A stretch of DNA of 64,000 nucleotides. Origin: Bacteroidales bacterium (GTDB taxonomy: Bacteria; Bacteroidota; Bacteroidia; Bacteroidales; UBA12077). The DNA lies in contig JAIORB010000133.1 in assembly GCA_021108325.1 (NCBI GenBank), forward strand, positions 1,937 to 65,936, given 5' to 3'. The notes below the pieces were generated by a model that ran no database searches, was not told the origin of the DNA, and saw only the letters and a list, made by a program, of their open reading frames with translations. A program made the translations under genes and the position numbers. This document shows positions 2,685-16,346 of the stretch, in pieces (positions within the stretch are counted from its first letter, which is position 1; every line of letters begins with the position of its first letter).

Positions 2685-2790
2685 TTTTAGAAAAATTTGA
2701 TTTAATTTAAAAAGACAAAATACTATTTTTAGTATTTTGTCTTTTTTATTTTTTATATTTATATTGTTTTTCTACTTAAATAATTTAGTT

Positions 2791-5700
2791 ATGATGAAAA
2801 AGAATATAATTCTCTTTTTGCTATTATTTATATATATCCCATTAACTGCACAAATTAATAAAAATGGAATTCCCCTTATAAAAAATTATGCACCCAACGA
2901 TTATAATGCTGCTGAACAAAACTGGACAATTTGTGAAGATAATCGGGGAGTCATATATTTTGGGAATAATGATGGTGGAATATTAGAATTTGATGGAAAT
3001 AGTTGGGAAAGAATTCCAATATCAAACGGTTCAATTATAAGATCATTAGCATATTCAGATGATGGAACTGTTTATGTAGGAGGAGTTGAGGAGTTTGGAT
3101 ATTTAACACCTGATAAAAAGGGTGAAATGTATTATCATACTTTGACTAATCAGTTAGATACTGTTGATTTTAAGGATGTATGGAAGATATATACTGTTAA
3201 TAATGAAGTTTATTTTTGCGAGGACAGGAATATATTTAAGTTCGTTGATAAAAAATTATCGAATGTATACAAAAATACCGGAGAATCATTTTTAAGCTTT
3301 TTAGTTGGAGATAAAATATATTGGGGTAGTTATGATAAAGGATTATATGAATTAATTGAAGATACAATACAATATACGAATGGGGGCGATTTTTATAAAG
3401 AGAAAGATATTTTTGTTATGTTGCCATGGTCTGAAAATGAAATTTTTATAGCAACAATTGGGCAGGGATTATATATTTATAATAGAGTGACTGGATTATC
3501 CCAAGATTTTAAATCTATGGGAGTAGAATTTCAAGAATTATACAATTTGCTTGACCAATCGCAAATATATAATGGTATAAAACTTTCTAATGATCAATAT
3601 GCTCTAGCGACATTGAATAAAGGTTGTTTAATATTTAATCAGGAAGGTGAATTAATACATAAGTTAGATAAAGAAAATGGATTACAGGACCTTACCGTAA
3701 TTAATTTGTTTGAATCAAAAGATGATCATTTATGGTTAGGATTAAATAAAGGGATATCTTTTATAGAGTATAATACTCCATTTACTAAATTTGATCAGGA
3801 ATATGGCATTGAAGGAATTGTCGTTGATGTAATACGTTATAATAATATTCTTTTTGTTTCGACAAATATTGGTTTATATTATTTAGATTATGATTCTCAA
3901 GATATGCCTGTTTTTATGAGTATACCTATGGATAGAACCGTTACTGATATGGACATCTTTAAAGATTATAGAACAGGCGAAACAAAGCTTATAATAGGAT
4001 CTAATTTTGGTGTTTGGGAATTTATATCTAAAGGTAAAGAACCTGATTATATTTCAACAACTGCTTATGAATGTGAAGTTATTTATCAATCAAGCTTATT
4101 TCCTAATAGATTATATGTTGGATGTTTAAATGGTCTGGCTCTATTAGAGTATAATAACAATGCATGGATTGATAAAGGAAATGTAAACGATGATATTTCG
4201 TCTCAAATAACGTCTATAATTGAAGATGAAAAAGGTAATATTTGGTTAGGATCTGTATTAAAAGGGGTTATAAAATTAAGTAGCGATCAAAATATAGAAA
4301 GATATGGTATTGAGGATGGTTTACCAGATATGAATGATAATAAGGTTTACTTTATTGATAATCAAGTTGTGTGTGCTACACAAAAGGGTTTATATAATTA
4401 TAATAAAGCAACAAATAAATTTGAAAAATACAAAGATTTTGGTGAGAAGTATTTTTTAAATACTGACAAAGTAAAAAGTATTGATTTTGAAAAAAAAGAT
4501 GAATATTGGATAGTTTTATCTAATTCAGTAACTAATTATGAATATATTGAGAAATTAAGAATTAGCCAGGATAGAATTGTAACTATTGAGGATATTCCCT
4601 TTAAACGTTTATTAAAAAAATCTTTTTACGAATTTACTTTTGATGGTGATAATGGCGTTTGGATTGCAACTTCGGATGCAATTTATAATTATCAGGAAAG
4701 ATTACAAGACGATTTTTCAAAGTTTTACAATAGCCTTATCCGTAAAATTGAAATGGGAATTGATTCTGTTATATTTTGGGGAACTTATTATAAAGATACT
4801 TCAAATCTTATTGTTGATTTGAATCAACCTGAAGAGCTTAAAAAAACAGTTAAGTATAAAGATAATTCATTTAATTTCTTTTATTCAACTCCATTTGTTC
4901 CAACCGATGAAATTAAATATAGTTATAAACTTGAAGGTTTTGATGATCAGTGGTCGAGTTGGAATATAGAAACAGACCGTGGTTATACTAACCTTAATGA
5001 AGGTCATTATACTTTCATGGTAAAATCGAAAAATATTTATGGTATCGAAAGTGAAGTTGTTACATATGAGTTTAGTATTAGACCACCTTGGTACAAAACT
5101 TTATTGGCTTATTTCTTTTATATTGTTTTAGCAATTTTTGTAATAATTGTTATTGTTAAAATTTACACCAGGAGGTTAGAATTAGAAAAAATTCGATTGG
5201 AACAAATTGTAAAAGAACGTACCGAAGAAGTTGTTAAGCAAAAAGATGAGATTGCTGAAAAGAATAAAAGTATTACAGATAGTATAGAATATGCGAGTCG
5301 TATACAAACAGCTATATTACCATCAAAAGAGTTTGCCGAAGAAATCCTTCCGGAACATTTTATATTATTCAGGCCTCGCGATATTGTTAGTGGTGACTTT
5401 TTCTGGATGACAAAAAAAGATAACTTAGTGGTTGTAATTGCGGCAGATTGTACAGGTCATGGAGTTCCGGGTGCTTTCATGAGTATGTTGGGTGTTTCTT
5501 TCTTAAACGAGATTGTTAACCGACACGAAGTTACTTCAGCCAATGTTATTTTAAATAACTTAAGAAGGGATATTAAGAAAACTCTTGGTCAGGAAGGTAA
5601 AGAAGGTGAAGCAAAAGATGGTATGGACATTGCCTTATGTGTTATTGATATTGAGAATATGAAAATGCAGTATTCCGGAGCTTATAATCCGCTATATTTA

Positions 5701-6021
5701 TTTCGCAACAATGAGTTAATGGAAGTAAAAGCAGATAGAATGCCAATTGGAATATATATTAAAGAAAAAGAATCATTTACTAATAATGAAATTGATCTGC
5801 AAGAGGGAGACGTATTCTATATATTCTCTGATGGTTATCAGGATCAGTTTGGTGGAGAAGACGGACAAAAATTTAAAACTAAAAACTATAAGCAATTCCT
5901 ACTTGAGATTCATCAAAAACCGATGGCTGAACAAAGGGAAATACTTGATAAAAGAATTGATGAATGGCGTGGTGATTGGGAACAGATCGATGATATTATT
6001 ATTTTAGGTATAAGAGTATAG
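2791..6021 (+). CDS. Beta-propeller/Y_Y_Y sensor fused to a SpoIIE (PP2C-type) serine phosphatase
   Basis: Signal peptide from ATG 2791; propeller repeats; YSYKLEGFD..YTNLNEGHYTFMVK (Y_Y_Y); TM after PPWY; PP2C motifs DIVSGDFF, ADCTGHGVPGA, DGMD, FSDGYQDQFGG, QIDD. Confidence 0.9.
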   Translation: MMKKNIILFLLLFIYIPLTAQINKNGIPLIKNYAPNDYNAAEQNWTICEDNRGVIYFGNNDGGILEFDGNSWERIPISNGSIIRSLAYSDDGTVYVGGVEEFGYLTPDKKGEMYYHTLTNQLDTVDFKDVWKIYTVNNEVYFCEDRNIFKFVDKKLSNVYKNTGESFLSFLVGDKIYWGSYDKGLYELIEDTIQYTNGGDFYKEKDIFVMLPWSENEIFIATIGQGLYIYNRVTGLSQDFKSMGVEFQELYNLLDQSQIYNGIKLSNDQYALATLNKGCLIFNQEGELIHKLDKENGLQDLTVINLFESKDDHLWLGLNKGISFIEYNTPFTKFDQEYGIEGIVVDVIRYNNILFVSTNIGLYYLDYDSQDMPVFMSIPMDRTVTDMDIFKDYRTGETKLIIGSNFGVWEFISKGKEPDYISTTAYECEVIYQSSLFPNRLYVGCLNGLALLEYNNNAWIDKGNVNDDISSQITSIIEDEKGNIWLGSVLKGVIKLSSDQNIERYGIEDGLPDMNDNKVYFIDNQVVCATQKGLYNYNKATNKFEKYKDFGEKYFLNTDKVKSIDFEKKDEYWIVLSNSVTNYEYIEKLRISQDRIVTIEDIPFKRLLKKSFYEFTFDGDNGVWIATSDAIYNYQERLQDDFSKFYNSLIRKIEMGIDSVIFWGTYYKDTSNLIVDLNQPEELKKTVKYKDNSFNFFYSTPFVPTDEIKYSYKLEGFDDQWSSWNIETDRGYTNLNEGHYTFMVKSKNIYGIESEVVTYEFSIRPPWYKTLLAYFFYIVLAIFVIIVIVKIYTRRLELEKIRLEQIVKERTEEVVKQKDEIAEKNKSITDSIEYASRIQTAILPSKEFAEEILPEHFILFRPRDIVSGDFFWMTKKDNLVVVIAADCTGHGVPGAFMSMLGVSFLNEIVNRHEVTSANVILNNLRRDIKKTLGQEGKEGEAKDGMDIALCVIDIENMKMQYSGAYNPLYLFRNNELMEVKADRMPIGIYIKEKESFTNNEIDLQEGDVFYIFSDGYQDQFGGEDGQKFKTKNYKQFLLEIHQKPMAEQREILDKRIDEWRGDWEQIDDIIILGIRV

Positions 6022-6035
6022 AAGGATGTCTAAAA

Positions 6036-6117
6036 AGGTGCTAAGCGGCCAATTTTATAAAATACTTCAAAACTAGCAATCTTATTATCAATTTGTTAGC
6101 AAATTCGCTAAGCACCT
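6036..6117. mobile_element. MITE-like element with AGGTGCTAAGCGG / CGCTAAGCACCT terminal inverted repeats (copy 1)
   Basis: ~82 bp; a second copy at 29064-29144 has similar internal sequence. Confidence 0.6.
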
Positions 6118-6182
6118 AATAAATTTTTTGATTAATTATTTGGTGCAAAGAAAATTACGATTACTTTTGAAAAAGAAAAAGT

Positions 6183-6347
6183 TCTGGTTTAATTTAGCGT
6201 TAAAAAAATGAAGGGCTAAAGCCCTGTTTTCATAGCATATTTATAACCCCGGCTTTATCCCGATGGCTATTGGGAGGGTTAGTTAGCACACCAGATAAGG
6301 ACTTTAGTCCAAAAATATCGAACTTAACAACGCTAAATTAAATTAGA
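6183..6347. mobile_element. MITE/REP-like element with terminal inverted repeats
   Basis: tctggtttaatttagcgtt (6183) pairs imperfectly with aacgctaaattaaattaga (6329-6347). Internal palindromes gggctaaagccc and ggactttagtcc. Confidence 0.5.
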
Positions 6348-6376
6348 GCCAAAGAAAATACTAACAGGCTTATTAC

Positions 6377-8008
6377 ATGTTATATAAGAATTCAATTTTC
6401 TTAAAAAAATATCCCCTACTTCTATTTTTGATTTTTTTATTAATATTTCAATCTATACAAGTTTATGGCCAAAATGTAAATCAAAATAATAGAGTCCTGT
6501 CAATAATAGATGTAGCAGAGCTTACACTGGAAAACAATAAAAATATATTAGTTAGTAAATCAAATGTTGAGGTTGCTGAAGGAAATATCTTAAAATCGAA
6601 ATCTGTTTTCAATTTAAAATTTAAAGGTAGTATTGATAAAACATATACTATAACACCATTAACAATTGATCAGAGGGAAAACTTATCTGATTACTCAAAT
6701 TCAAGTTATACTGAAAATGATTTATTTGATTATACCATTGGTGCTTATAAGAAATTTAAATTCGGTACAATAATAAATCCGGGTATAACTTTTACTAATT
6801 TCGGAAAGGATACTCTTTACAATTATTTATATGAAGCAGGATCTGGTGAATATATAACAAATAGAAGTAAAGTTTATCTAAATCTAAATCAACCAATTTT
6901 AAAAGGAGCCGGAAAAGAATATAATACAGCAGATCTTAGAATCAGTAAAAAAAGATACCAGCTAACAGAAGAATATTATTACCATAATATTTCAACGAGC
7001 TTATTAGAATCTTTTATTGCATATTTAGAATATATTGGGGTAAAAAAGAATCTTGAAATACAAGAAAATATTGATGATAAATTTTTATTGGTAATTCATC
7101 AAATTGAAAAATTGATTGAAATGGATGCAATACCTGCATCGGATTTAAATTATTTAAAGGCAAACTATACAGCAAGAAAATCTGAATTGGTAGATGCTCA
7201 AAATCAATTGCAAAATTATAAAATACATTTAGCTAATAAAATTGGTCTTGATAGAGAAGAAATACCTAAGATGTTTGAACCTCCAAATGAGTATATAATT
7301 TCAGATATTGAATTAGTTTCAAGAAAAGAAGATTATATTGGATACTCTTATAGACAAAGCTTAATGAATAGAAAAGATTATCTTGGTTCAGAATTATTGT
7401 TGGATGTTGAAAAAGAATTAGTTAAATACTATAAAAAGAGTTTAAAGCCAACGCTCGATTTAAATTTATCTATAGGTTATAATGGCATTTACGAGTCTGG
7501 TAATTTTGATCAATATTACAAACCTTATTTTGAAAATATCCCGGGAATAAATTATAAAGTTGGAATTTCATTTGTTATAGATGCAAATAATGACTTAAAT
7601 AATGGAAATCTAATAGTTGCAAAAGGTAATTATAATAGGCAGAAAGCATTATCACAATCCTTAGAAGAAGATATATATATTAATATTTCAAAGTTTTACA
7701 ACGATATTATTAATTACAAAGAAATAGTATTATTGTATAAAGAAACAGTAAGGTTTTATGAAGAAGCTTTAGAAAATGAGAATATAAAACTAAAACTTGG
7801 AACATCAACGGTTATTAACCTGGTTCAAATTCAAAATGATTATTATTTAGCATTAGATCTTTTGTATAGCGCTATATTAAATTTGAATATGTCAATACTT
7901 TATTATAGATATCATACAGGAACGTTGTGCTCTATTATTGATGATAATACTATTGATATTGATTATCAGAATTTATTTTCGTTACCTTTTAAATTTGATA
8001 ACTACTAA
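6377..8008 (+). CDS. TolC-family outer membrane factor of the peptide export cluster
   Basis: N-terminal signal; OEP-like pattern (TLENNKNI..., KPTLDLNLSIGY, LKLGTSTVINLVQIQNDY). The stop abuts the HlyD start (taaATG). Confidence 0.8.
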   Translation: MLYKNSIFLKKYPLLLFLIFLLIFQSIQVYGQNVNQNNRVLSIIDVAELTLENNKNILVSKSNVEVAEGNILKSKSVFNLKFKGSIDKTYTITPLTIDQRENLSDYSNSSYTENDLFDYTIGAYKKFKFGTIINPGITFTNFGKDTLYNYLYEAGSGEYITNRSKVYLNLNQPILKGAGKEYNTADLRISKKRYQLTEEYYYHNISTSLLESFIAYLEYIGVKKNLEIQENIDDKFLLVIHQIEKLIEMDAIPASDLNYLKANYTARKSELVDAQNQLQNYKIHLANKIGLDREEIPKMFEPPNEYIISDIELVSRKEDYIGYSYRQSLMNRKDYLGSELLLDVEKELVKYYKKSLKPTLDLNLSIGYNGIYESGNFDQYYKPYFENIPGINYKVGISFVIDANNDLNNGNLIVAKGNYNRQKALSQSLEEDIYINISKFYNDIINYKEIVLLYKETVRFYEEALENENIKLKLGTSTVINLVQIQNDYYLALDLLYSAILNLNMSILYYRYHTGTLCSIIDDNTIDIDYQNLFSLPFKFDNY

Positions 8009-9619
8009 ATGAATAATCAACTATTTAGAAAAGAAGCCTTAGTTAGAATTGAGTCTCCCGAGAGACTAAATGAAATGGTTAAGATTACATCTGCCAGAAG
8101 TTGGTTAATATTGACAGCTATAATTGGTGTTTTAACAGCTTTTATTCTATGGAGCATATTTGGCGAATTACCGTATACGATAAATGGTCAGGGAATTATT
8201 CAACAGCCGGGAGGTATTATCGAAATTGCATCAATTGCACCCGGAAGAATTGAAAGAACAATGGTGCTTGAAGCGGATATTATTAACGAAGGTGATGTAA
8301 TAGCTTATATTGATCAACCTGAATTGGAAATGCAAATTGAAAATGCTAAAAAAGAACTTGCTGATATTAACAAGAGATTTATGCAGATTTCTGATTTCGG
8401 TTATGAAAATTTAGAGTTGAAAAAAATATTATACGATAAAGAAGAAAAAATTTTAAATAAAACCATAAAGTTAAACCTTGATAGATTAGATTTTATAAAG
8501 GAAAGAATAGCTGCCCAGGAGGAACTTTTAGCAAAAGGCTTAATCACTAAAGAAAATTTAAATAACACTAAAGAAGAGTTTTTTAATATTCAGCAGGAGA
8601 ATGACAACCTTTCAAATGATATGAAAGAATTGCAACAAAAAATTTATGAAATTAAAGAACAAAATGAAATAGAATTAAATCAGATTAAATCAGAAATTCT
8701 TAACGTTGAAAATAGAATAAGAGAATTAGAAGCTTTACATCAACTTAATACGAAAGTTATTAGCCCTTATGCAGGAAAAATTATTGAATTAATGGTAAAT
8801 CCGGGCAAAGTAATTGAAGCAGGAAACCCGATTGTGAGTATTGAACCATTGAACTTAATAAATGACCTTCAGGCTATAATATACGTAAATCCAAAAGAAG
8901 GTAAAAAGATAGAACCCAAAATGAAAGTAAAACTTTCTCCTTCTACAATAGAAGTAGAAGAATTTGGATATATTAATGGTATTGTAGAGAAAGTTTCTGA
9001 GTATCCATCTACATTTCAGGGAATGTTGAGAACATTAGGGAGCATGGAATTAGTAAAAACATTTACACAGGAAGGGCCGCCAATAGCCATCAAAGTTTAT
9101 TTGGATAAAGACTCAACCACCTTTAGCGGATATTCATGGACATCTAAGCATGGGCCTGAATTAGAAATAAAATCGGGTACTTTATGTTCATCTAAAATCG
9201 TTACCGAAACAAGAAGGCCAATTTCTCTATTATTTCCAAAGCTTTCTAACAGAACCTCTAAATACTTAAATGAAAAATTTGAAACCAGGGAAACTAAATC
9301 AAAAAAAGAAAAAGAAGCCTATGTAATCAATCAAGAATATAATACAGAAAAGAATAAAGGATCACTGAATGATACCTTAAGTGAAAAAGTTGATATTTCT
9401 GGTTTTACAATTCAAATAGCAGCTACCAGAAGATCATTAAGTTTATATGAATTATCGACAATATATAATGGTGAAGAAAAAATTAATAAGGAATATATTG
9501 ATGATTGGTATAAATATTCAATTGGAAATTTTAGATCAAAAGATGAAGCAAAGTCATATATAAAGGAAAATAATTTAGGAGCCAGAGTATTTATAAGAAC
9601 TATAACCAATGTAAAATGA
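8009..9619 (+). CDS. NHLM/NHLP bacteriocin system secretion protein (HlyD-type adaptor) with a C-terminal SPOR-like domain
   Basis: N-terminus LFRKEAL.RIESPERLNEMVKITS is typical of the NHLM-system adaptor; TM, coiled coil, YSWTS..GP..I.SGTLC. An extra ~120-aa tail contains FTIQIAA...WYKYSIGNF.SKDEA. Confidence 0.85.
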   Translation: MNNQLFRKEALVRIESPERLNEMVKITSARSWLILTAIIGVLTAFILWSIFGELPYTINGQGIIQQPGGIIEIASIAPGRIERTMVLEADIINEGDVIAYIDQPELEMQIENAKKELADINKRFMQISDFGYENLELKKILYDKEEKILNKTIKLNLDRLDFIKERIAAQEELLAKGLITKENLNNTKEEFFNIQQENDNLSNDMKELQQKIYEIKEQNEIELNQIKSEILNVENRIRELEALHQLNTKVISPYAGKIIELMVNPGKVIEAGNPIVSIEPLNLINDLQAIIYVNPKEGKKIEPKMKVKLSPSTIEVEEFGYINGIVEKVSEYPSTFQGMLRTLGSMELVKTFTQEGPPIAIKVYLDKDSTTFSGYSWTSKHGPELEIKSGTLCSSKIVTETRRPISLLFPKLSNRTSKYLNEKFETRETKSKKEKEAYVINQEYNTEKNKGSLNDTLSEKVDISGFTIQIAATRRSLSLYELSTIYNGEEKINKEYIDDWYKYSIGNFRSKDEAKSYIKENNLGARVFIRTITNVK

Positions 9620-9635
9620 TAATGCTTTATTTTAT

Positions 9636-11792
9636 ATGAGTAAAAGAGTAAAAACCCCGGTTGTTTTGCAAATGGAAGCTGTTGAATGTGGAGCGGCCAG
9701 CCTGAGTATTGTATTATCATATTTTAAAAGATTTGTTCCCTTAGAAAAACTGCGACAAGATTGTGATGTTAACAGAGATGGAAGTAGTGCAAAGAATATA
9801 TTAAAAGCTGCTGCATTGCATGGAATGGAAGGAAAGGGATATAAGTTTGAAGTTGAAGATTTTGAAGATCAGGATTTCCCTGTAATAATTCACTGGAAGT
9901 TTAATCATTTTCTGGTTTTAGAAGGAATTAAAAATGACAAAGTTTACCTAAATGATCCGGCTGTCGGGCATCAGGTTATTACTTTGGAAGAATTCGGTGC
10001 GTCTTTTACCGGGATAATATTAGAAATAGTTCCGTCAGACAACTTTACAAAACTTGGCAAAAAAAGTAATTTATTAGCAGGATTAAAGTCAAGATTAAAA
10101 CATTACGAAAAGGATATAGCATTTATAATATTCTTAGGTTTGCTTTTGGTTGTTCCCGGAATAGTAATTCCTGTTTTCACACGTATTTTTGTTGATAATA
10201 TTTTAATTGGAAATTTAAGAGAATGGCTTTGGCCATTGGTGGCTGGCATGGCAATTACTGCAGTTTTCAGGGCTGTTGTAAATTACTTAAAATTGCATTA
10301 TTTATTGCGGACTAAGAGTAAACTTGATATGGTGACCTCTGCTAAATACTTTTGGCATGTTTTAAGATTACCAATTAGTTTTTTTAATCAAAGGTACAGA
10401 GGTGAAATAGGTAGCAGGATACTATTAAATTCTAAAGTAGCGGACCTAATAACAGGGAAATTAGCAAATAACTTTTTAGATATTATTCTTATAGCATTTT
10501 ATTTTATTATAATGCTACAATATGATGTTGTACTTACAATACTCGGTACATGTCTTTCTTTAATAAATATAATAGCCCTGAGAATAATATCTAAAAAAAG
10601 AGCAGAAGGATATTTGAATTATACTTCTGAATCAGGAAAACTCATGGGAGTAACTTTAGGAGGAATTCAAACCATTGAAACATTAAAAGCAATGGGGCGG
10701 GAAAATGATTTTTTCATTAAATGGTCGGGCTATTTTACCAAAGTTGTTAATGCCGGCCAAAAGTTAGGAATATTAACATTGTTGCTTAATTCAGTACCTG
10801 TATTATTGAAATCAATAATCACAATAGTTATATTGATAATTGGATCTTTAAAAGTAATTAATGGAGTAATTACAATGGGAATGTTGGTTGCATTTCAAAG
10901 CTTATTTGAAAGTTTTTCACAACCGATTGAGAATTTAGTAAGATTAGGAAGTGACTTACAAGAAGCGGAAGGAGATATGACCAGGCTTGATGATGTTTTA
11001 AAATCTGAAATAGATATACAGGTGTCAAGAGAGTTAAGGCTGAATAAAGATAATTATTCCGAAATTACAAAAAAATTAGATGGTTATATTGAGTTTAGAA
11101 ATGTTACGTTTGGATATTCAAATTTCTCGAAACCTTTAATAGAAAATTTAAGCTTTAAAATAGCTCCGGGAGAAAAAGCAGCCTTAGTTGGTGGTTCAGG
11201 TAGCGGAAAATCTACAATCGCTAAGTTACTAGCTGGGTTTTATGAACCCTGGAGTGGAGAAATCTTATTTGATGATAAGCCCCGGGCAGAATGGCCCCGA
11301 CAGGTTATCAATAACACGCTTTCAATGGTTGCACAAGAAGTTTTCTTATTTCAGGGAACATTTACAGAAATATTAACTATTTGGGATACAACAGTTCCTG
11401 ATCAAATGGTTATTCAGGCTGCTAAAGATGCCTGTGTACATGAGTTTATATCCGGTAAATCAAAGGCTTATGATTATGAAATAGCAGAAGGTGGAAAAAA
11501 TCTGAGTGGTGGTCAAAGGCAACGGTTAGAAATAGCCAGGGCTCTGGTTAGTAATCCATCATCGATAATTCTGGATGAAGCAACAAGTGCTCTGGATTCA
11601 TTAACTGAACAAATCGTTTTAGATAATATAGGAAAAAGAAAATGTTCTGTTTTAGTGGTTGCACATAGACTAAGTACAATTCGGGACTGTGACGAGATTA
11701 TCGTATTACAGCAAGGACAAATTATTGAGCGTGGTGTACACAAAGATTTATTGAAGAAAAAAGGAGAGTATGCAAAATTAATTGAAAACTGA
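9636..11792 (+). CDS. NHLM bacteriocin export ABC transporter with C39 peptidase domain (PCAT)
   Basis: TPVVLQMEAVECGAASL (catalytic Cys), HWKFNHFLV (His), LNDPA (Asp); ABC membrane domain; GGSGSGKST, LSGGQRQR, ILDEATSALD. Confidence 0.93.
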   Translation: MSKRVKTPVVLQMEAVECGAASLSIVLSYFKRFVPLEKLRQDCDVNRDGSSAKNILKAAALHGMEGKGYKFEVEDFEDQDFPVIIHWKFNHFLVLEGIKNDKVYLNDPAVGHQVITLEEFGASFTGIILEIVPSDNFTKLGKKSNLLAGLKSRLKHYEKDIAFIIFLGLLLVVPGIVIPVFTRIFVDNILIGNLREWLWPLVAGMAITAVFRAVVNYLKLHYLLRTKSKLDMVTSAKYFWHVLRLPISFFNQRYRGEIGSRILLNSKVADLITGKLANNFLDIILIAFYFIIMLQYDVVLTILGTCLSLINIIALRIISKKRAEGYLNYTSESGKLMGVTLGGIQTIETLKAMGRENDFFIKWSGYFTKVVNAGQKLGILTLLLNSVPVLLKSIITIVILIIGSLKVINGVITMGMLVAFQSLFESFSQPIENLVRLGSDLQEAEGDMTRLDDVLKSEIDIQVSRELRLNKDNYSEITKKLDGYIEFRNVTFGYSNFSKPLIENLSFKIAPGEKAALVGGSGSGKSTIAKLLAGFYEPWSGEILFDDKPRAEWPRQVINNTLSMVAQEVFLFQGTFTEILTIWDTTVPDQMVIQAAKDACVHEFISGKSKAYDYEIAEGGKNLSGGQRQRLEIARALVSNPSSIILDEATSALDSLTEQIVLDNIGKRKCSVLVVAHRLSTIRDCDEIIVLQQGQIIERGVHKDLLKKKGEYAKLIEN

Positions 11793-11823
11793 CACAGAAA
11801 ATTGAAATATAAAACCAGATTTA

Positions 11824-14736
11824 ATGAATACTGAAATAGTTAAATTCATAAAAGAAAATGGGAAACAAATTAAATTGGCAGATAATACACCTGTTGAATT
11901 TTCCGATCCCAATAAAATCTGGTATATACATAAAGGAAAAATAAATCTAAGTGGAGCTAAATCTGTAAATAATAAAATAACCGGAAAAGTTTATTATTTA
12001 TCAAAATTTCAAGAAGGAGAAATATTAATTGGATGCCAACAACAAGGTAAAAGTAATTTTTGTTTTATTGTTAGTCCTGAAGAAGATACTGTTATTTATG
12101 AATTTTCAGTAAGTTATACAAAACGAAAAATTAAGAAGAACAATGTTTTAATTAATAGATTAGTAGAGTTAATCGATAATTGGGTGATAAAATTATTTGA
12201 AATAACTAATAATTTTAGTACGAATGAAAAAAACAATATTGACTATTATTTAGATGAGAATATAATAAATGTAGAAAAACCCGAATCGTTTCTTTCAACA
12301 CGAAAAAGATTGATTTGGTTCAATTCAAATGAAAGTGAGAATTTTTTATTTTGTGGCCATTTGACCATAGAAAATACAGGGCCGGTTTTCTTTCCTGTTT
12401 CAAAAGAAGCTTATATAAAATTAAAAGAGCCGGTAAATTTAAAATCATATAAGACTCTCGATATATTCGATAAAAGTGAATTTTGGAACGGCCTGAATTT
12501 GTATATTGAGTTAATTCTTGAAAAGATACAGTATGAAATAAAACAACAAAAAAGGGTAACTGATGAATGGCTCGAAAGAAAATATAAAGCAAGAAACAAG
12601 GAGTTTTTTCATACAGTTGGCTTAGCAAAAACTGTTTTAGAAGATTCACACGAAGAACAAATAATTTCCAAGTTTAAGAAAAGTCCTGATAATTTATTTA
12701 ATGTTTGTTCTTTAGTTGCGGAGAACTTAGATATTAAATTGGTATTTCCTCCAAATTTAGAGAGCTGTTCGGACCCAATTGATGAAATTAGCAGATACTC
12801 GGGTATAAGATACAGGGAAATAATATTAGATGGGAAATGGTATAAAAATATTGGGAATAATGCATTAATAGCATTTATTGAAGAATCAAATAATCCGATT
12901 GCCATAATTCCAAAAAGGAATGAAATAATAGCATATGACCTTAAAGAAGGTACATCATTTGAAATAAATAAAAATTCACATGAAAAAATTGAGAAAATAT
13001 CTTATACGCTATACAAGCCTTTGCCAAATAAAAAATTGAAATTAAAAGATTTAATTAAATATTCAATTATAAAGAATAAAAGAGATATTTTCAGGTTAAT
13101 AAATTCAGGTCTTTTAACTACAATATTGGCGCTTCTTGTACCAATTATGACAGCAATATTATTTGATTCTATTATTCCAAATGCACAGAGTAGTCAATTA
13201 ATATATATAGCTTTTGCATTACTAATGGCAGCTGTTGGAGGCATATTTTTTGAAATTGTAAAAAGTATATCGGTATTAAGATTAAGAGGAATTATCGATA
13301 GCAATTTGCAAGCAGCTCTTTGGGATCGATTGCTTGAAATGCCTTCAGAGTTTTTTAGAAAATTCACTTCTGGTGACCTGGCAGATAGATCTTTAAGTAT
13401 TACTTATATTATTAATATTTTATCCGGTGTTATAATTACTTCTATAATAGGTGGTATTTTTTCAGTTTTTAATTTCTTCCTGTTATACTATTTTAGTCCC
13501 AAGTTAGCGTTAATTACTTCAGGATTAGTTATTGTGTACATTATAACAATGTATTTTCTTGGCAAGAAACAAATTATATATGAGAAAAAGATTCAATATC
13601 ACGAAGGAAAGAATTTTGGCATTATCTTACAATTGCTTACCGGTATAACTACATTAAAGATTTCAGGAACAGAAATAAAAGCTTTTATTCATTGGTTTAA
13701 AAACTATATTATATCAAAAGAATATTCAATTGCAGCCGAAAAAAATAAAAACATTCAGCGAATAATAAGTTCGTCATTTTATATAATCTCATTAACTATT
13801 ATTTATTTTTCTTTAATTAAACTTACAACAGGAATTACAACAGGTCAATTTCTGGCCTTTAATGCTGCATTGGGAGCTTTTATTCTATCAATGATAGGCC
13901 TTAGTGAAAGTATAGTTTACGCATTAGAAATAATTCCTTATTATGATCGAATGAAACCTGTATTTGATGAGTTACCTGAAAGTTTTGGTGTTAAAACAGC
14001 TCCTGAAGAATTAAAGGGAAACATTGAGTTACATAACATTATATTTCGATATAATGAAAACGCACCTTTAGTTTTAAATAATATTTCCTTTAAAATTAGA
14101 AAGGGAGAATATATTGCTCTTGTGGGGCCTTCCGGATCCGGGAAATCGACCATAATCAGATTATTGCTTGGTTTTAATAATTTGGATTCAGGAACTATAA
14201 TTTATGATGATCAAGAATTAAAAAATATTGATTTAAGGCTTTTAAGAAGACAATTAGGTGTTGTATTGCAGGATGGAAGTTTATTTGGTGGTGATATTTT
14301 TACTAATATTATTGGTTCATCACCTCATTTAACATTGAATGATGCATGGGATGCTGCCGAAGAAGCAGCTTTGGATAAAGATATTGAAAGCATGCCAATG
14401 GGAATGTTTACAATAGTAAGTGAAGATGGAGGTACACTTTCAGGGGGACAAAGGCAAAGATTAATGATAGCCAGGGCATTAGTTCATAAGCCTAAAATAT
14501 TAATTTTTGATGAAGCTACTTCTGCACTTGATAACAGGACACAGGCAATTGTGACCGAAAGTCTGGACAAACTTCAGGTGACAAGAATTGTTGTTGCTCA
14601 TAGATTAAGTACAATAAAAAATGCCGATAGAATAATATACCTTGAAGAAGGTAAAATATTGGAAGAAGGAAATTACAATGACTTAATGCTGCTTAAAGGA
14701 CGTTTCTATGGGCTTGCACAGAGACAACTTGAATAA
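11824..14736 (+). CDS. NHLM bacteriocin system ABC transporter (peptidase-less partner with long N-terminal extension)
   Basis: N-terminal cNMP-binding-like region, degenerate peptidase-like region (IRYREIILDGKWYK), membrane domain, GPSGSGKST, LSGGQRQRL, FDEATSALDNRTQ. Confidence 0.9.
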   Translation: MNTEIVKFIKENGKQIKLADNTPVEFSDPNKIWYIHKGKINLSGAKSVNNKITGKVYYLSKFQEGEILIGCQQQGKSNFCFIVSPEEDTVIYEFSVSYTKRKIKKNNVLINRLVELIDNWVIKLFEITNNFSTNEKNNIDYYLDENIINVEKPESFLSTRKRLIWFNSNESENFLFCGHLTIENTGPVFFPVSKEAYIKLKEPVNLKSYKTLDIFDKSEFWNGLNLYIELILEKIQYEIKQQKRVTDEWLERKYKARNKEFFHTVGLAKTVLEDSHEEQIISKFKKSPDNLFNVCSLVAENLDIKLVFPPNLESCSDPIDEISRYSGIRYREIILDGKWYKNIGNNALIAFIEESNNPIAIIPKRNEIIAYDLKEGTSFEINKNSHEKIEKISYTLYKPLPNKKLKLKDLIKYSIIKNKRDIFRLINSGLLTTILALLVPIMTAILFDSIIPNAQSSQLIYIAFALLMAAVGGIFFEIVKSISVLRLRGIIDSNLQAALWDRLLEMPSEFFRKFTSGDLADRSLSITYIINILSGVIITSIIGGIFSVFNFFLLYYFSPKLALITSGLVIVYIITMYFLGKKQIIYEKKIQYHEGKNFGIILQLLTGITTLKISGTEIKAFIHWFKNYIISKEYSIAAEKNKNIQRIISSSFYIISLTIIYFSLIKLTTGITTGQFLAFNAALGAFILSMIGLSESIVYALEIIPYYDRMKPVFDELPESFGVKTAPEELKGNIELHNIIFRYNENAPLVLNNISFKIRKGEYIALVGPSGSGKSTIIRLLLGFNNLDSGTIIYDDQELKNIDLRLLRRQLGVVLQDGSLFGGDIFTNIIGSSPHLTLNDAWDAAEEAALDKDIESMPMGMFTIVSEDGGTLSGGQRQRLMIARALVHKPKILIFDEATSALDNRTQAIVTESLDKLQVTRIVVAHRLSTIKNADRIIYLEEGKILEEGNYNDLMLLKGRFYGLAQRQLE

Positions 14737-14826
14737 TTACTTAATATTTGTTAAAAATGAATATTGTGTTTGTTTAATAAAATTATTTTGTTAATTTTAA
14801 TTATTATTAATCTAAAAAAATAAGTT

Positions 14827-14955
14827 ATGAAAACAAAAAAAACAAAAAAAGATCCTAAAAAGAAAAAAAAAGAAGTTAATGTAAAAGACCTGGAAAATGT
14901 AACTGGTGGTGGTAGTGTAGGTGGATTTGCAGTTAGCGGTAGAAGTCCAAGTTAG
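14827..14955 (+). CDS. Double-glycine leader precursor peptide A (42 aa): MKTKKTKKDPKKKKKEVNVKDLENVTGG|GSVGGFAVSGRSPS
   Basis: Manual translation, ATG 14827 to TAG 14953-14955. The leader ends in the C39 recognition motif DLENVTGG. Lies 90 bp after the exporter cluster; a paralog starts 437 bp downstream. Confidence 0.88.
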   Translation: MKTKKTKKDPKKKKKEVNVKDLENVTGGGSVGGFAVSGRSPS

Positions 14956-14981
14956 TTATTAGTTATAATTTAATAAGATTT

Positions 14982-15015
14982 AAAAGCCAGGTATTGTTTA
15001 CAACCTGGGTTTTTT
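14982..15015 (+). terminator. Rho-independent terminator after precursor A
   Basis: aaaagccaggt-loop-acctgggttttttt hairpin with U-tract. Confidence 0.7.
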
Positions 15016-15016
15016 A

Positions 15017-15082
15017 TATCAATTCTTCTTCAAAATACTATCCCGATTTAATCGGGATAGTATTTTGAAGTTTAGAATGGTT
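15017..15082. mobile_element. MITE-family copy (partial) containing a perfect 43-bp palindrome
   Basis: cttcaaaatactatcccgatt-t-aatcgggatagtattttgaag (15028-15070); homologous to 15448-15512 and 59648-59757. Confidence 0.6.
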
Positions 15083-15095
15083 ATATTTATTTAAT

Positions 15096-15132
15096 CCAGA
15101 ACTCCCTGCGGTCTTGCCGCATGGATGAATGG
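15096..15132. repeat. REP-like hairpin
   Basis: ccagaactccctgcggtcttgccgcatggatgaatgg, a GC-rich imperfect stem-loop in an AT-rich spacer. Confidence 0.4.
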
Positions 15133-15263
15133 TAAATTATAAATCAGAAAATTCGGTTTTGACCTTTAATATTAAAATTTGTTAAAAATGAATATTGTTC
15201 TTGTTTTATAATTTTTTTTAATTATTTTTATATTAATGGTTTAATAATCTAAAAAATGAAGTT

Positions 15264-15392
15264 ATGAAAACAAAAAAAACAAAAAAAGATCCTAAAAAAA
15301 ACAAAAAGGAAATTAATCCAAAAGATTTAGAAAATGTAACTGGTGGTGGAAAAGTTGGTGGTTTTGCAGTTAGTGGAAGAACTTCTACCTAG
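15264..15392 (+). CDS. Double-glycine leader precursor peptide B (42 aa): MKTKKTKKDPKKNKKEINPKDLENVTGG|GKVGGFAVSGRTST
   Basis: Manual translation, ATG 15264 to TAG 15390-15392. Several synonymous differences from copy A (gac/gat, ctg/tta, gta/gtt, agc/agt) with frame and length kept, consistent with coding constraint. Confidence 0.88.
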   Translation: MKTKKTKKDPKKNKKEINPKDLENVTGGGKVGGFAVSGRTST

Positions 15393-15417
15393 TAGTTAGT
15401 TATATTTAATAAGTTAT

Positions 15418-15446
15418 AAAGCCAGGTTGTAAAACCTGGTTTTTTT
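15418..15446 (+). terminator. Rho-independent terminator after precursor B
   Basis: aaagccaggtt-gtaa-aacctggttttttt. Confidence 0.75.
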
Positions 15447-15447
15447 A

Positions 15448-15512
15448 TACCAATTCTTCTTCAAAATGTCGTTCCGATTTAATCGGGATAGTATTTTGAA
15501 TAATAAACGGTA
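15448..15512. mobile_element. MITE with TACC...GGTA termini flanked by TTA
   Basis: Left end taccaattcttcttcaaa, right end tttgaataataaacggta; the same ends occur at 59648-59757. Confidence 0.65.
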
Positions 15513-16205
15513 TTATTCACCCTTAGAAGATTTAATTTTGCTTCTGTATTTCATAACTTCCGACTCCTTAAACAAAATTTTAAGTTGCAGGTAAAATACA
15601 TATCGTGAAATAATCGTCGATATGAATAAAATAATTAATAAAAAGAATATATCATTAATGATTTCGCCTATTGTAAAATTATAAAGTAATGAAATAATTA
15701 TTGCGAATATTAAAGTAAATAACAACTGACTTAAATAGACCCTTAGAGGGAAAAGGTATAAAAAACTTGTTGTTAATATAGTAATAACGGCAATATTGTA
15801 GTTTCCGTCACCATATTTTATAAAAATTACCGACTTAAAAACAGACCATAAAAGAATAAAAATCGATATAATTCCATGGACATATTTATGGTGACCTTGA
15901 ATATTCCTGTGAGTTTTTACCTGGTTAAAATATACATATATTGTAAAAACGAATGAAAATACTAAAAAAACGATATCAGCTTTAAGATGAATAAGAAACA
16001 CCTTGTAGTCTGCAAGTTTTTGTATTATAGATATATCATAAAATGTAAATGCAGAAGAGCATATAATTAAAAAAACGGTTAAATATTTTGATCTTATATT
16101 ATTTAGAAAGCATAGTCTTTTACTAAAGTCTTCGCTAAGGTTTTGTGGGTTAATAAATAATTTTTGAAAGCTTGTCATTAATAAAGTATTGATACGTTCT
16201 ATCAA
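15513..16205 (-). CDS. Hypothetical multi-pass membrane protein (5-6 TM)
   Basis: 230-aa ORF with several hydrophobic helices; convergent with the precursor genes; start uncertain. Confidence 0.65.
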   Translation of the reverse strand: MIERINTLLMTSFQKLFINPQNLSEDFSKRLCFLNNIRSKYLTVFLIICSSAFTFYDISIIQKLADYKVFLIHLKADIVFLVFSFVFTIYVYFNQVKTHRNIQGHHKYVHGIISIFILLWSVFKSVIFIKYGDGNYNIAVITILTTSFLYLFPLRVYLSQLLFTLIFAIIISLLYNFTIGEIINDIFFLLIILFISTIISRYVFYLQLKILFKESEVMKYRSKIKSSKGE

Positions 16206-16272: not shown

Positions 16273-16273
16273 G

Positions 16274-16346
16274 TGAACCTGGAGGGATTCGAACCCCCAA
16301 CCTCCTGATCCGTAATCAGGTGCACTATCCATTATGCTACAGGTCC
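16274..16346 (-). tRNA. tRNA-Arg(ACG)
   Basis: Minus strand GGACCTG TAGCATAATGGATAGTGC A CCTGA TTACGGA TCAGG AGGTT GGGGG TTCGAAT CCCTC CAGGTTC A folds as a cloverleaf with anticodon ACG; CCA is not encoded. Confidence 0.93.

Follow-up and report, generated by a model that had tools for sequence, protein, structure and literature searches.

Candidate exported double-glycine peptides whose cores copy segments of resident fibre and HU proteins, encoded beside an inserted NHLM-type transporter set in a Bacteroidales genome

We analysed a 64,000-nucleotide stretch of DNA from an uncultured Bacteroidales bacterium of marine sediment, hereafter the window (GenBank assembly GCA_021108325.1, contig JAIORB010000133.1, positions 1,937 to 65,936; contig C13 of the source genome G000, which comprises 3.70 Mb in 160 contigs at 31.6% G+C), and focused on an NHLM-type export operon that is followed by two 42-aa open reading frames (ORFs) with double-glycine (GG) leaders, pepA and pepB. 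The short cores of both putative precursors copy a segment that is repeated in the stalk of a fibre protein encoded in the same genome, and a third precursor, pepC, carries a near copy of the C-terminus of the genome's own HU protein. The overall best explanation, which we advance tentatively, is that the peptides are unmodified, exported mimics of protein fragments, and the locus itself is best explained as a self-contained, horizontally inserted export module. A sequence-only reading of the window had proposed the four-gene operon and both small ORFs, and their coordinates and translations hold, as does the absence of Cys from the cores. The two precursors, both 3′ of ABC2, the last transporter gene, are:

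14827..14955, + strand: precursor A (pepA), a 28-aa Lys-rich GG leader and a 14-aa core (translation MKTKKTKKDPKKKKKEVNVKDLENVTGG followed by GSVGGFAVSGRSPS)
15264..15392, + strand: precursor B (pepB), the same leader type and a 14-aa core (translation MKTKKTKKDPKKNKKEINPKDLENVTGG followed by GKVGGFAVSGRTST)

The cores of pepA and pepB share the pattern G[K/S]VGGFAVSGR[S/T][P/S][S/T]. The cores have four to five Ser/Thr residues and a pI of 9.5-11, and the leader holds 10-11 Lys. Substrates with GG leaders carry GG at −2/−1 and hydrophobic residues at −4, −7 and −12, and the leaders here fit that rule with V at −4, L at −7 and V or I at −12 ahead of the GG. Neither peptide matched any NCBIfam family at E ≤ 0.01, including the NHLP, Nif11 (TIGR03793/TIGR03798) and bacteriocin models, in agreement with the earlier description of the precursors as neither NHLP- nor Nif11-like, and pepC scored under the cut-offs of two class II bacteriocin models (TIGR01847, 15.1 bits vs 15.7; TIGR03949, 11.9 bits vs 21.5). 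A search of the ESM Atlas with the peptide gave a best score of 0.87 to unnamed clusters, which serves as a lead only, and a search for longer relatives of pepA (P0001) returned 21 candidates of which none scored, constituting weak evidence against a fused long form.

Peptide cores and their parent proteins

Searching the source genome with pepA by tblastn identified four tandem sites on contig C17, where a gene (C17:87-2036) has a product of 649 aa that comprises a signal peptide, an N-terminal domain predicted with confidence, four ~40-aa repeats that form the stalk, and YadA_head repeats (E 7e-18). Each of the four stalk repeats holds GKVGGFAVSGRSPS with one Lys directly on either side. This fibre block equals the core of the precursor from the sister genome G047 over 14/14 residues, and differs from the pepA core at one position and from the pepB core at three. 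Repeats collected from 12 loci of the genus conform to the consensus K-G-[KST]-V-G-G-F-A-V-S-G-R-[STN]-P-[ST]-K in 37 of 38 regular-expression matches, and the sites at which the fibre repeat varies are the same sites at which the peptide cores vary (precursor positions 30 and 40-42). At the nucleotide level the peptide cores and the fibre repeats have 25-33 of 42 positions in common, so the identity between core and fibre is held at the protein level and does not stem from a recent copy. As a control, each of the three G000 cores was shuffled 100 times, and no shuffled version equalled the real best score elsewhere in the genome.

Of 24 genomes from the same genus, 20 contain the fibre motif, and one genome can have as many as 52 matches; among the 150 matches listed (a further 264 exist) the motif always lies inside ORFs of 217-1335 aa. 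It was found in none of 16 genomes of other families, and the fibre repeat region gave no match at E ≤ 1e-5 in 400 other genomes of the phylum. In the protein database, at least 652 clusters named 'tail fiber domain-containing protein' match the repeat region at E ≤ 1e-5 and carry Peptidase_S74, YadA_head or PF26696 tips, forming a large mosaic family. The C17 protein showed no match to any anchor family at E ≤ 1 and was therefore not assigned to the trimeric autotransporter adhesins. The secreted mosaic fibre family is large and confined to the genus, and its members combine a signal peptide, a conserved N-domain and 2-8 repeats (the C17 gene, L001:87-2033, and its relatives L004-L014), and a D-S-T triplet is present in every ~40-aa stalk repeat. 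The N-domain bears a weak, sub-threshold likeness to the N-domain of the Bdellovibrio 'mosaic adhesive trimer' (NF053851, 42 bits vs a cut-off of 60), and the fibre genes are often arrayed, with many paralogues per genome (for example G011:C14/C34, G024:C73 and G003:C10).

A genome-wide scan for small ORFs with GG leaders revealed the third precursor, pepC, on contig C132, where the same upstream cassette and leader are joined to the core KSIVKFKAGSDLADAVNKI. Aligned with the genome's own HU, which ends in KAKNVVKFKAGSDLADAVN, this core agrees with the C-terminal 17 aa at 15 of 17 residues (tblastn E 2e-5), and 29 of 32 nucleotides agree, all three differences being synonymous. The HU protein, encoded on contig C39 (L054:718-987, minus strand), aligns with PF00216 over positions 1-90 of 90 (E 1.5e-34). 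Comparable HU-type peptides occur in other sources: the metagenomic peptide P0187 joins a Lys-rich leader to AKNIVKFKAGSDLADAVQ, matching a genus HU that ends in AKNVVKFKAGSDLADAVQ, and genomes G048 and G010 contain ORFs with an HU core behind another, different GG leader at a syntenic locus. A further core type is represented by the metagenomic peptide P0194, in which a Lys-rich leader precedes PGGKPVDIIGTRTGGGTKK, a core with a 67-72% match to one site, PGGKPVDMIGVRHGGGS preceded by KGK, of ~2000-aa multi-PKD proteins that carry the Por_Secre_tail domain of the type IX secretion system (T9SS) in five genus genomes. After the HU-derived end of pepC (L002, 369-448) comes an exact 40-nt tandem duplication of the last codons, with the ORF ending inside the second copy; either recombination left this duplication as a scar or it is an artefact of assembly. 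Next to pepC lie a gene for an outer-membrane-like protein and, on the other strand, an extracytoplasmic function (ECF) sigma/anti-sigma pair.

Comparison of pepA, pepB and the G047 precursor places all amino-acid changes in the cores at positions 30 and 40-42, and in every pairwise comparison of the three the intervening segment V31-R39 (VGGFAVSGR) has 3-4 synonymous differences and no non-synonymous ones, a substitution pattern that indicates purifying selection on the core and marks the small ORFs as real genes. Public protein sets contain four further metagenomic peptides with this leader and a fibre-type core, and in P0007 the leader has clearly diverged and the core is the same. A profile search of 1.84 billion representatives returned 128 matches at E ≤ 1e-3, mostly fibre proteins with 2-8 stretches each, together with small peptides. 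P0166, P0180 and P0189 combine a Lys-rich leader with drifted fibre-type cores, and P0215 (with two core copies) and P0224 carry a fibre-type core behind unrelated GG leaders. Scanning metagenomes with a degenerate pattern for the leader end KDLENVTGG yielded 13 loci, none with a Lys-rich leader, that were NHLP-like, LysM-type or chance matches; the same leader end precedes LysM-domain cores of ~50-70 aa on metagenome contigs L032, L035, L037 and L040, and belongs to NHLP-like precursors on L039 and L041.

The export operon and its insertion site

The four transport genes occupy window positions 6377-14736 as a co-directional series with intergenic gaps of 0, 16 and 31 nt, and 90 nt separate the end of ABC2 from the first peptide ORF. 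The features of the operon, the precursor units and the flanks, apart from the two precursors given above, are:

2737-6021: resident sensor-type protein just upstream of the insertion, 1094 aa, with Reg_prop/Y_Y_Y propeller repeats and a C-terminal SpoIIE (PP2C) phosphatase domain
6018..6376, no strand: left insertion edge and non-coding lead-in; homology to G002 stops at ~6017 and G047 matches again from 6121
6377..8008, + strand: TolC-like outer-membrane factor, 543 aa (Pfam OEP, E 2.1e-26)
8009..9619, + strand: NHLM-type HlyD periplasmic adaptor, 536 aa (TIGR03794, 343.7 bits vs a cut-off of 156.2, residues 13-413)
9636..11792, + strand: NHLM ABC1, a C39 peptidase-containing ABC transporter (PCAT), 718 aa (TIGR03796, 990.9 bits vs a cut-off of 853.3, residues 6-717, full length)
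11824..14736, + strand: NHLM ABC2, a second permease/ATPase without a peptidase, 970 aa (TIGR03797, 815.5 bits vs a cut-off of 709.4, residues 289-969)
14741..14826, + strand: upstream cassette of precursor A, presumed promoter region (direct repeat D3)
14971..15082, no strand: hairpin terminator and 21-nt perfect palindrome (15028-15070, I3); resident host DNA at the right insertion edge, present in G002
15172..15263, + strand: upstream cassette, second copy, with 83% identity to that of precursor A (D3)
15415..15500, no strand: second copy of terminator and palindrome (direct repeat D2, 89% identical; terminator-like site 15471-15489)
15513-16205, − strand: 230-aa multi-pass membrane protein without a family, conserved in 25 of 37 genus genomes
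16273-16346, − strand: tRNA-Arg (ACG), next to the 230-aa membrane gene

With TIGR03794, TIGR03796 and TIGR03797 all matching above their cut-offs, the three models that define the set place the exporter in the NHLM family, as the sequence-only reading had proposed. ABC1 combines Peptidase_C39 (E 1.9e-34), ABC_membrane and ABC_tran domains in Pfam, and its N-terminal 155 aa align over 134 residues with PDB 6mpz_A ('Double Glycine Motif Protease domain from AMS/PCAT Transporter'; E 2.9e-48). The blocks QMEAVECGAAS and HWKFNHF match identical blocks in 6mpz_A, leaving intact the Cys and His blocks that we take to contain the catalytic residues. The TolC-like protein scored 56.4 bits against TIGR01844, under the cut-off. 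HlyD has an extra C-terminal tail of ~120 aa (window 9248-9616) with a sub-threshold SPOR match (E 0.001, 19.8 bits vs a cut-off of 21), and ABC2 begins with a 288-aa N-terminal extension (window 11824-12690), for which no Pfam family was found across residues 1-300 at E ≤ 1. In the ESM Atlas the ABC2 N-terminus gave a best score of 0.85 and a weak likeness (0.84) to a cyclic nucleotide (cNMP)-binding cluster, again a lead only.

Comparison with other members of the genus defines the extent of the insertion. In G002, which is about 96% identical, the end of the phosphatase gene is joined directly to the terminator, the palindrome and the 230-aa gene, and window positions ~6020-14970 are missing; the site is likewise empty in G008, G045 and G042, which are more distant, giving four of the four other genus genomes examined. 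Because the phosphatase gene adjoins the 230-aa gene in the genomes with an empty site, the segment from TolC to pepA must have moved as one unit, and the alignments indicate that TolC, HlyD, ABC1, ABC2 and a precursor entered together as ~9 kb of DNA with a right edge just past the pepA stop codon. A true NHLM ABC1 above cut-off is present in two of 37 genus genomes, G000 and G047, and among 401 genomes sampled across the order, NHLM ABC2 was present in one, G000 itself; an ABC2-based search for related loci returned the sister metagenome-assembled genome (MAG) and three distant ABC matches only. G047 is ~95% identical in DNA over the operon and carries, 90-100 nt 3′ of ABC2, a single precursor (MKTKKTKKDPKKKKKEINVKDLENVTGG followed by GKVGGFAVSGRSPS), then the same convergent 230-aa membrane ORF and tRNA. 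A conserved equivalent of the small ORFs, whose absence beside homologous clusters would have counted against them in the earlier reading, thus follows ABC2 directly in the sole other exporter-bearing genome among the 37.

The pepB unit is a tandem copy of the pepA unit (repeat D1, 167 nt, 84% identity, spacing 437 nt), and the duplication of ~435 nt includes the upstream region, the ORF, the hairpin terminator and the 21-nt perfect palindrome. These comparisons indicate that one precursor was present at insertion and that the unit was duplicated later in G000. The upstream cassette aligns in four of four copies (pepA, pepB, G047 and the C132 locus), and the first 45 nt of the precursor ORFs (window 14827-14871 and 15264-15308), largely A-runs of up to 9 nt that code for Lys, are identical in all four DNA copies. 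The sequence is present in 17 metagenome runs, all DNA, from marine sediment, cold seep and other sources. Contigs assembled from four of these runs do not span the stretch, and in two runs the depth in the leader bins greatly exceeds that of the flanks, the sequence there being poly-A-rich and of low complexity. Contigs of two metagenome runs show length differences of 1-4 nt at 15288-15290, for which other organisms or mis-laying of low-complexity sequence are possible sources.

We also considered the sequences around the precursors. The peptide genes now make use of the terminator that belonged to the SpoIIE-type phosphatase gene. The palindrome was rejected as a genome-wide repetitive extragenic palindromic (REP) element since its pattern gave two matches only, and the 230-aa membrane ORF was rejected as an immunity or receptor gene since 25 of 37 genus genomes have it as a resident gene, the empty-site genomes among them. 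In several genus genomes (G008, G024:C21 and G003:C10) the 230-aa gene lies within tens of kb of fibre gene arrays.

Possible function and rival explanations

Synteny, co-insertion and leader features make it very probable that the peptides are the cargo of the adjacent exporter. The C39 domain would recognize the leader through V−4, L−7, V/I−12 and the GG and would cut after Gly28, and the four-part machine would then expel an unmodified 14-mer, or a 19-mer in the case of pepC. For the unmodified 14-mers, the predicted monoisotopic masses are 1263.62 and 1322.69 Da. Export without modification is the simpler reading compared with maturation in trans and is somewhat more probable than not. Once outside the producer, the fragments could occupy the partner of the parent segment or bind the parent protein itself, with possible outcomes that include modulated or poisoned fibre assembly or adhesion, effects on an HU-dependent matrix, or a signal. 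Selection appears to have acted on the likeness to the parent, because the same segments have been recruited repeatedly behind different leaders and because the core, which is more conserved than the leader, keeps to the fibre motif while its codons change synonymously. A function that depends on mimicry of the parent protein is accordingly plausible to us, though we would not call it probable. A bolder form, which we regard as speculative and rather unlikely, is that these are natural, encoded 'interfering' peptides: GG cassettes would repeatedly recruit the best-conserved short segments of abundant extracellular or matrix proteins (fibre, PKD/T9SS and HU), and PCAT-TolC machines would send them out to neighbouring cells, kin or rival, where they would bind or cap the parent proteins or assemble together with them, either as a dominant-negative weapon against the fibres and DNABII matrix of congeners or as a dispersal or anti-adhesion signal. 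Such peptides would be nature's equivalent of synthetic peptides derived from a target.

Several observations weigh against the mimic explanation or parts of it. The fibre repeat region of the C17 protein is modelled, as a monomer, at a predicted local distance difference test (pLDDT) of ~30, so the model offers no structural rationale for what a 14-mer would compete with; a complex prediction of three copies of fibre stalk residues 150-350 with the precursor gave 0.00 vs a mark of 0.32, was run without controls and is evidence in neither direction. The PKD-type match is limited, at 67-72% over ~20 aa with E 0.001-0.007 per genome, and some cores of the family have drifted, such as those beginning GARGGFAVGGLS and GAKGGFATGGLS. 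The identical poly-A-rich 45 nt at the start of the ORFs could mean that the leader or mRNA, and not the core, is constrained, and the island, at 29.3% G+C vs 31% in the flanks, gives no compositional support for a foreign origin. The search for tailoring enzymes covered four families (YcaO, LanC-like, SPASM and PqqD), and in a MAG of 160 contigs an unlinked modifying enzyme may exist. Finally, the identity to resident proteins may record only where the core DNA came from, through capture of gene fragments.

This origin-only view of the likeness is the main rival to mimicry. Under it, the products would be ordinary unmodified GG peptides, acting as a bacteriocin, microcin or pheromone, and the cores would be random gene fragments captured behind a mobile promoter-plus-leader cassette, with an activity (attack on membranes or binding to a receptor) unrelated to their parents, a state of affairs that we judge less likely but consider seriously. 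It would account readily for a promoter-plus-leader cassette found at three loci with two unrelated cores, for the HU-like 3′ end and 40-nt tandem duplication of pepC, which looks like a recombination scar, and for the basic character of the cores (pI 9.5-11), and PCATs are described in passages of PMC7018657 and PMC10986499 as exporting both pheromones and bacteriocins. Random capture would not, however, be expected to pick the most invariant block of the repeat or to keep the native HU C-terminus, and the fibre block stands behind at least three leader types and the HU C-terminus behind two, with four junction points. The core moreover keeps the fibre motif through many synonymous changes, with the leader diverging faster (P0007 and P0146 vs P0001). 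The same substitution record, with no non-synonymous and 3-4 synonymous changes in VGGFAVSGR in each of three pairs, makes it very unlikely that the small ORFs are non-functional debris, that is, chimeric remnants of recombination at the insertion edge with little or no transcription or translation; the ORF is also intact in the sister species and in at least 10 distinct metagenomic sequences, and the upstream region is conserved, even though pepA sits at the very edge of the insertion and pepC bears its duplication scar. More improbable still is that the Lys-rich 28-aa leader is the functional product, a cytoplasmic regulatory peptide after cleavage, and the exported core disposable. The leader does hold 10-11 Lys and the four DNA copies agree fully over the opening 45 nt of the ORF, and a cytoplasmic role of a retained N-terminal fragment was put forward as a working model for the PCAT HetC in PMC10986499, but across the wider family the leader is far more variable than the core, the core is the part under purifying selection, and the poly-A identity may reflect gene conversion between recent copies.

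Maturation in trans would make the products peptides that are synthesized on ribosomes and modified after translation (RiPPs), with the Ser/Thr-rich core modified by dehydration, glycosylation or epimerization through an unlinked enzyme, possibly one that modifies the fibre repeats. We consider this unlikely. The ~9-kb inserted block, which moved as a unit, contains four transport genes and a precursor and lacks the co-encoded tailoring enzyme of a RiPP cluster, and the leader is 28 aa long with no NHLP/Nif11 similarity. The earlier reading had reported no modifying enzyme in the window, and this held in the searches made: Pfam revealed no RiPP enzyme among 18 window ORFs between 3 and 32245, and no YcaO, LanC-like, SPASM or PqqD match lies on C13. 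As to its alternative of maturation in trans, there was no YcaO match genome-wide and no LanC-like match in a search in which control genomes were silent too, and there were three SPASM matches and one PqqD match, all on other contigs, which together with the four to five Ser/Thr residues per core keep an enzyme acting in trans in view. NHLM sets were, moreover, defined by correlation with NHLP/Nif11 precursors, and modification genes are often unlinked, as outlined in parts of PMC2887384. The absence of YcaO and of Cys in the cores speaks against such an enzyme, as does the high promiscuity it would need to act on three unrelated core types carried by one leader. The radical SAM (rSAM)/SPASM genes beside another PCAT, on contig C85, which account for one of the three SPASM matches, are an unlikely maturase, since a Cys-rich precursor of their own, whose leader differs, accompanies them. 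That separate RiPP-like cluster (L023, 2630-13014) comprises a 54-aa precursor at 2630-2794 (MKKKLKLNSLNKIEKKNLAKVKGG followed by NCVGCMCHGG...), an rSAM/SPASM gene at 2863-4227, a second rSAM-like ORF at 4208-5428, a TPR protein, an FtsX-like permease, a C39 PCAT at 9262-11502 and an HlyD; its PCAT falls ~450 bits below the NHLM cut-off and is of the type common in the genus.

Relation to known systems

Peptides with GG leaders that are exported by PCATs are usually read as bacteriocins, pheromones or RiPPs with freely evolving cores, whereas the cores described here copy conserved segments of resident proteins. Word searches, which cannot match sequence motifs, found no published description of GG-peptide cores that do so. 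If the identity is functional, it would point to a way of acting that has not been described for peptides secreted by bacteria, in which a named parent protein is imitated or interfered with, and each peptide would have an immediately testable target although the organism is uncultured. If instead it reflects origin only, the locus would still be a clean example of new exported peptides born from gene fragments and of an NHLM exporter with minimal, non-NHLP precursors. The identity also suggests a simple mining rule, in which the core of a GG peptide is compared with the proteome of its producer, and which, if the likeness is functional, could assign targets to many orphan small peptides.

The closest parallels in sequence are the NHLM systems, whose three-gene transport set emerged when Haft et al. 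(2010; passages of PMC2887384) applied phylogenetic profiling to NHLP/Nif11 precursors. The present locus resembles an NHLM cassette in its three transport proteins above equivalog cut-offs and in a leader end, (E/K)DLENVTGG, like that of the metagenomic NHLP-like precursors on L039 and L041. It departs from NHLM/NHLP systems in its 42-aa precursors with a 28-aa Lys-rich leader, in having no linked YcaO, LanM or rSAM gene, in a TolC-like gene within the operon and in the extra 288-aa N-terminus of ABC2. The LahT-type AMS/PCAT protease (PDB 6mpz) is the closest solved relative of the C39 domain, in a comparison of the protease domain alone; the substrates here are much shorter than those of LahT-type proteases, and their cores copy resident proteins. 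On gene content, the system is also like the unmodified GG peptides of Gram-positive bacteria and the class II microcins in combining a short precursor, a GG leader, predicted PCAT cleavage and export and no tailoring enzyme, features set out in portions of PMC7018657, PMC7595303 and PMC12219008. It is unlike them in that the predicted mature peptide is 14 aa long, Gly-rich and free of Cys, and in that the cores are copies of resident proteins; no immunity gene or two-component sensor was found in the inserted block.

Other parallels are matters of concept. The enterococcal pheromone cCF10 derives from a lipoprotein signal peptide. It and the inhibitor peptide iCF10 bind the same domain of PrgX, according to passages of PMC5552905, and the peptides here would be comparable in concept only, as short exported peptides of a mobile element that resemble a fragment of a resident protein and compete for the same site. 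The two systems differ in phylum and in export route, that of cCF10/iCF10 involving no PCAT/TolC, the enterococcal peptides are 7-8 aa long with a known intracellular receptor, and there is no sequence relation. Synthetic 'Pept-ins' and amyloidogenic antimicrobial peptides offer a second conceptual likeness, in that a copy of a target segment binds or co-aggregates with its target and knocks it down; they are man-made, and no natural, encoded, exported counterpart is described in the corresponding parts of PMC8447941 and PMC9140876. As in Nostoc, where the PCAT HetC is proposed to export short regulatory peptides, a Gram-negative PCAT would here carry short peptides, although no gene with a GG leader lies near hetC and the HetC substrate is still unknown in the account given in part of PMC10986499. 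The HetC system and the present one have no sequence relation. PatS and HetN share one short motif, and the present peptides are like that pair in that a short active motif of a tiny peptide recurs within a larger protein.

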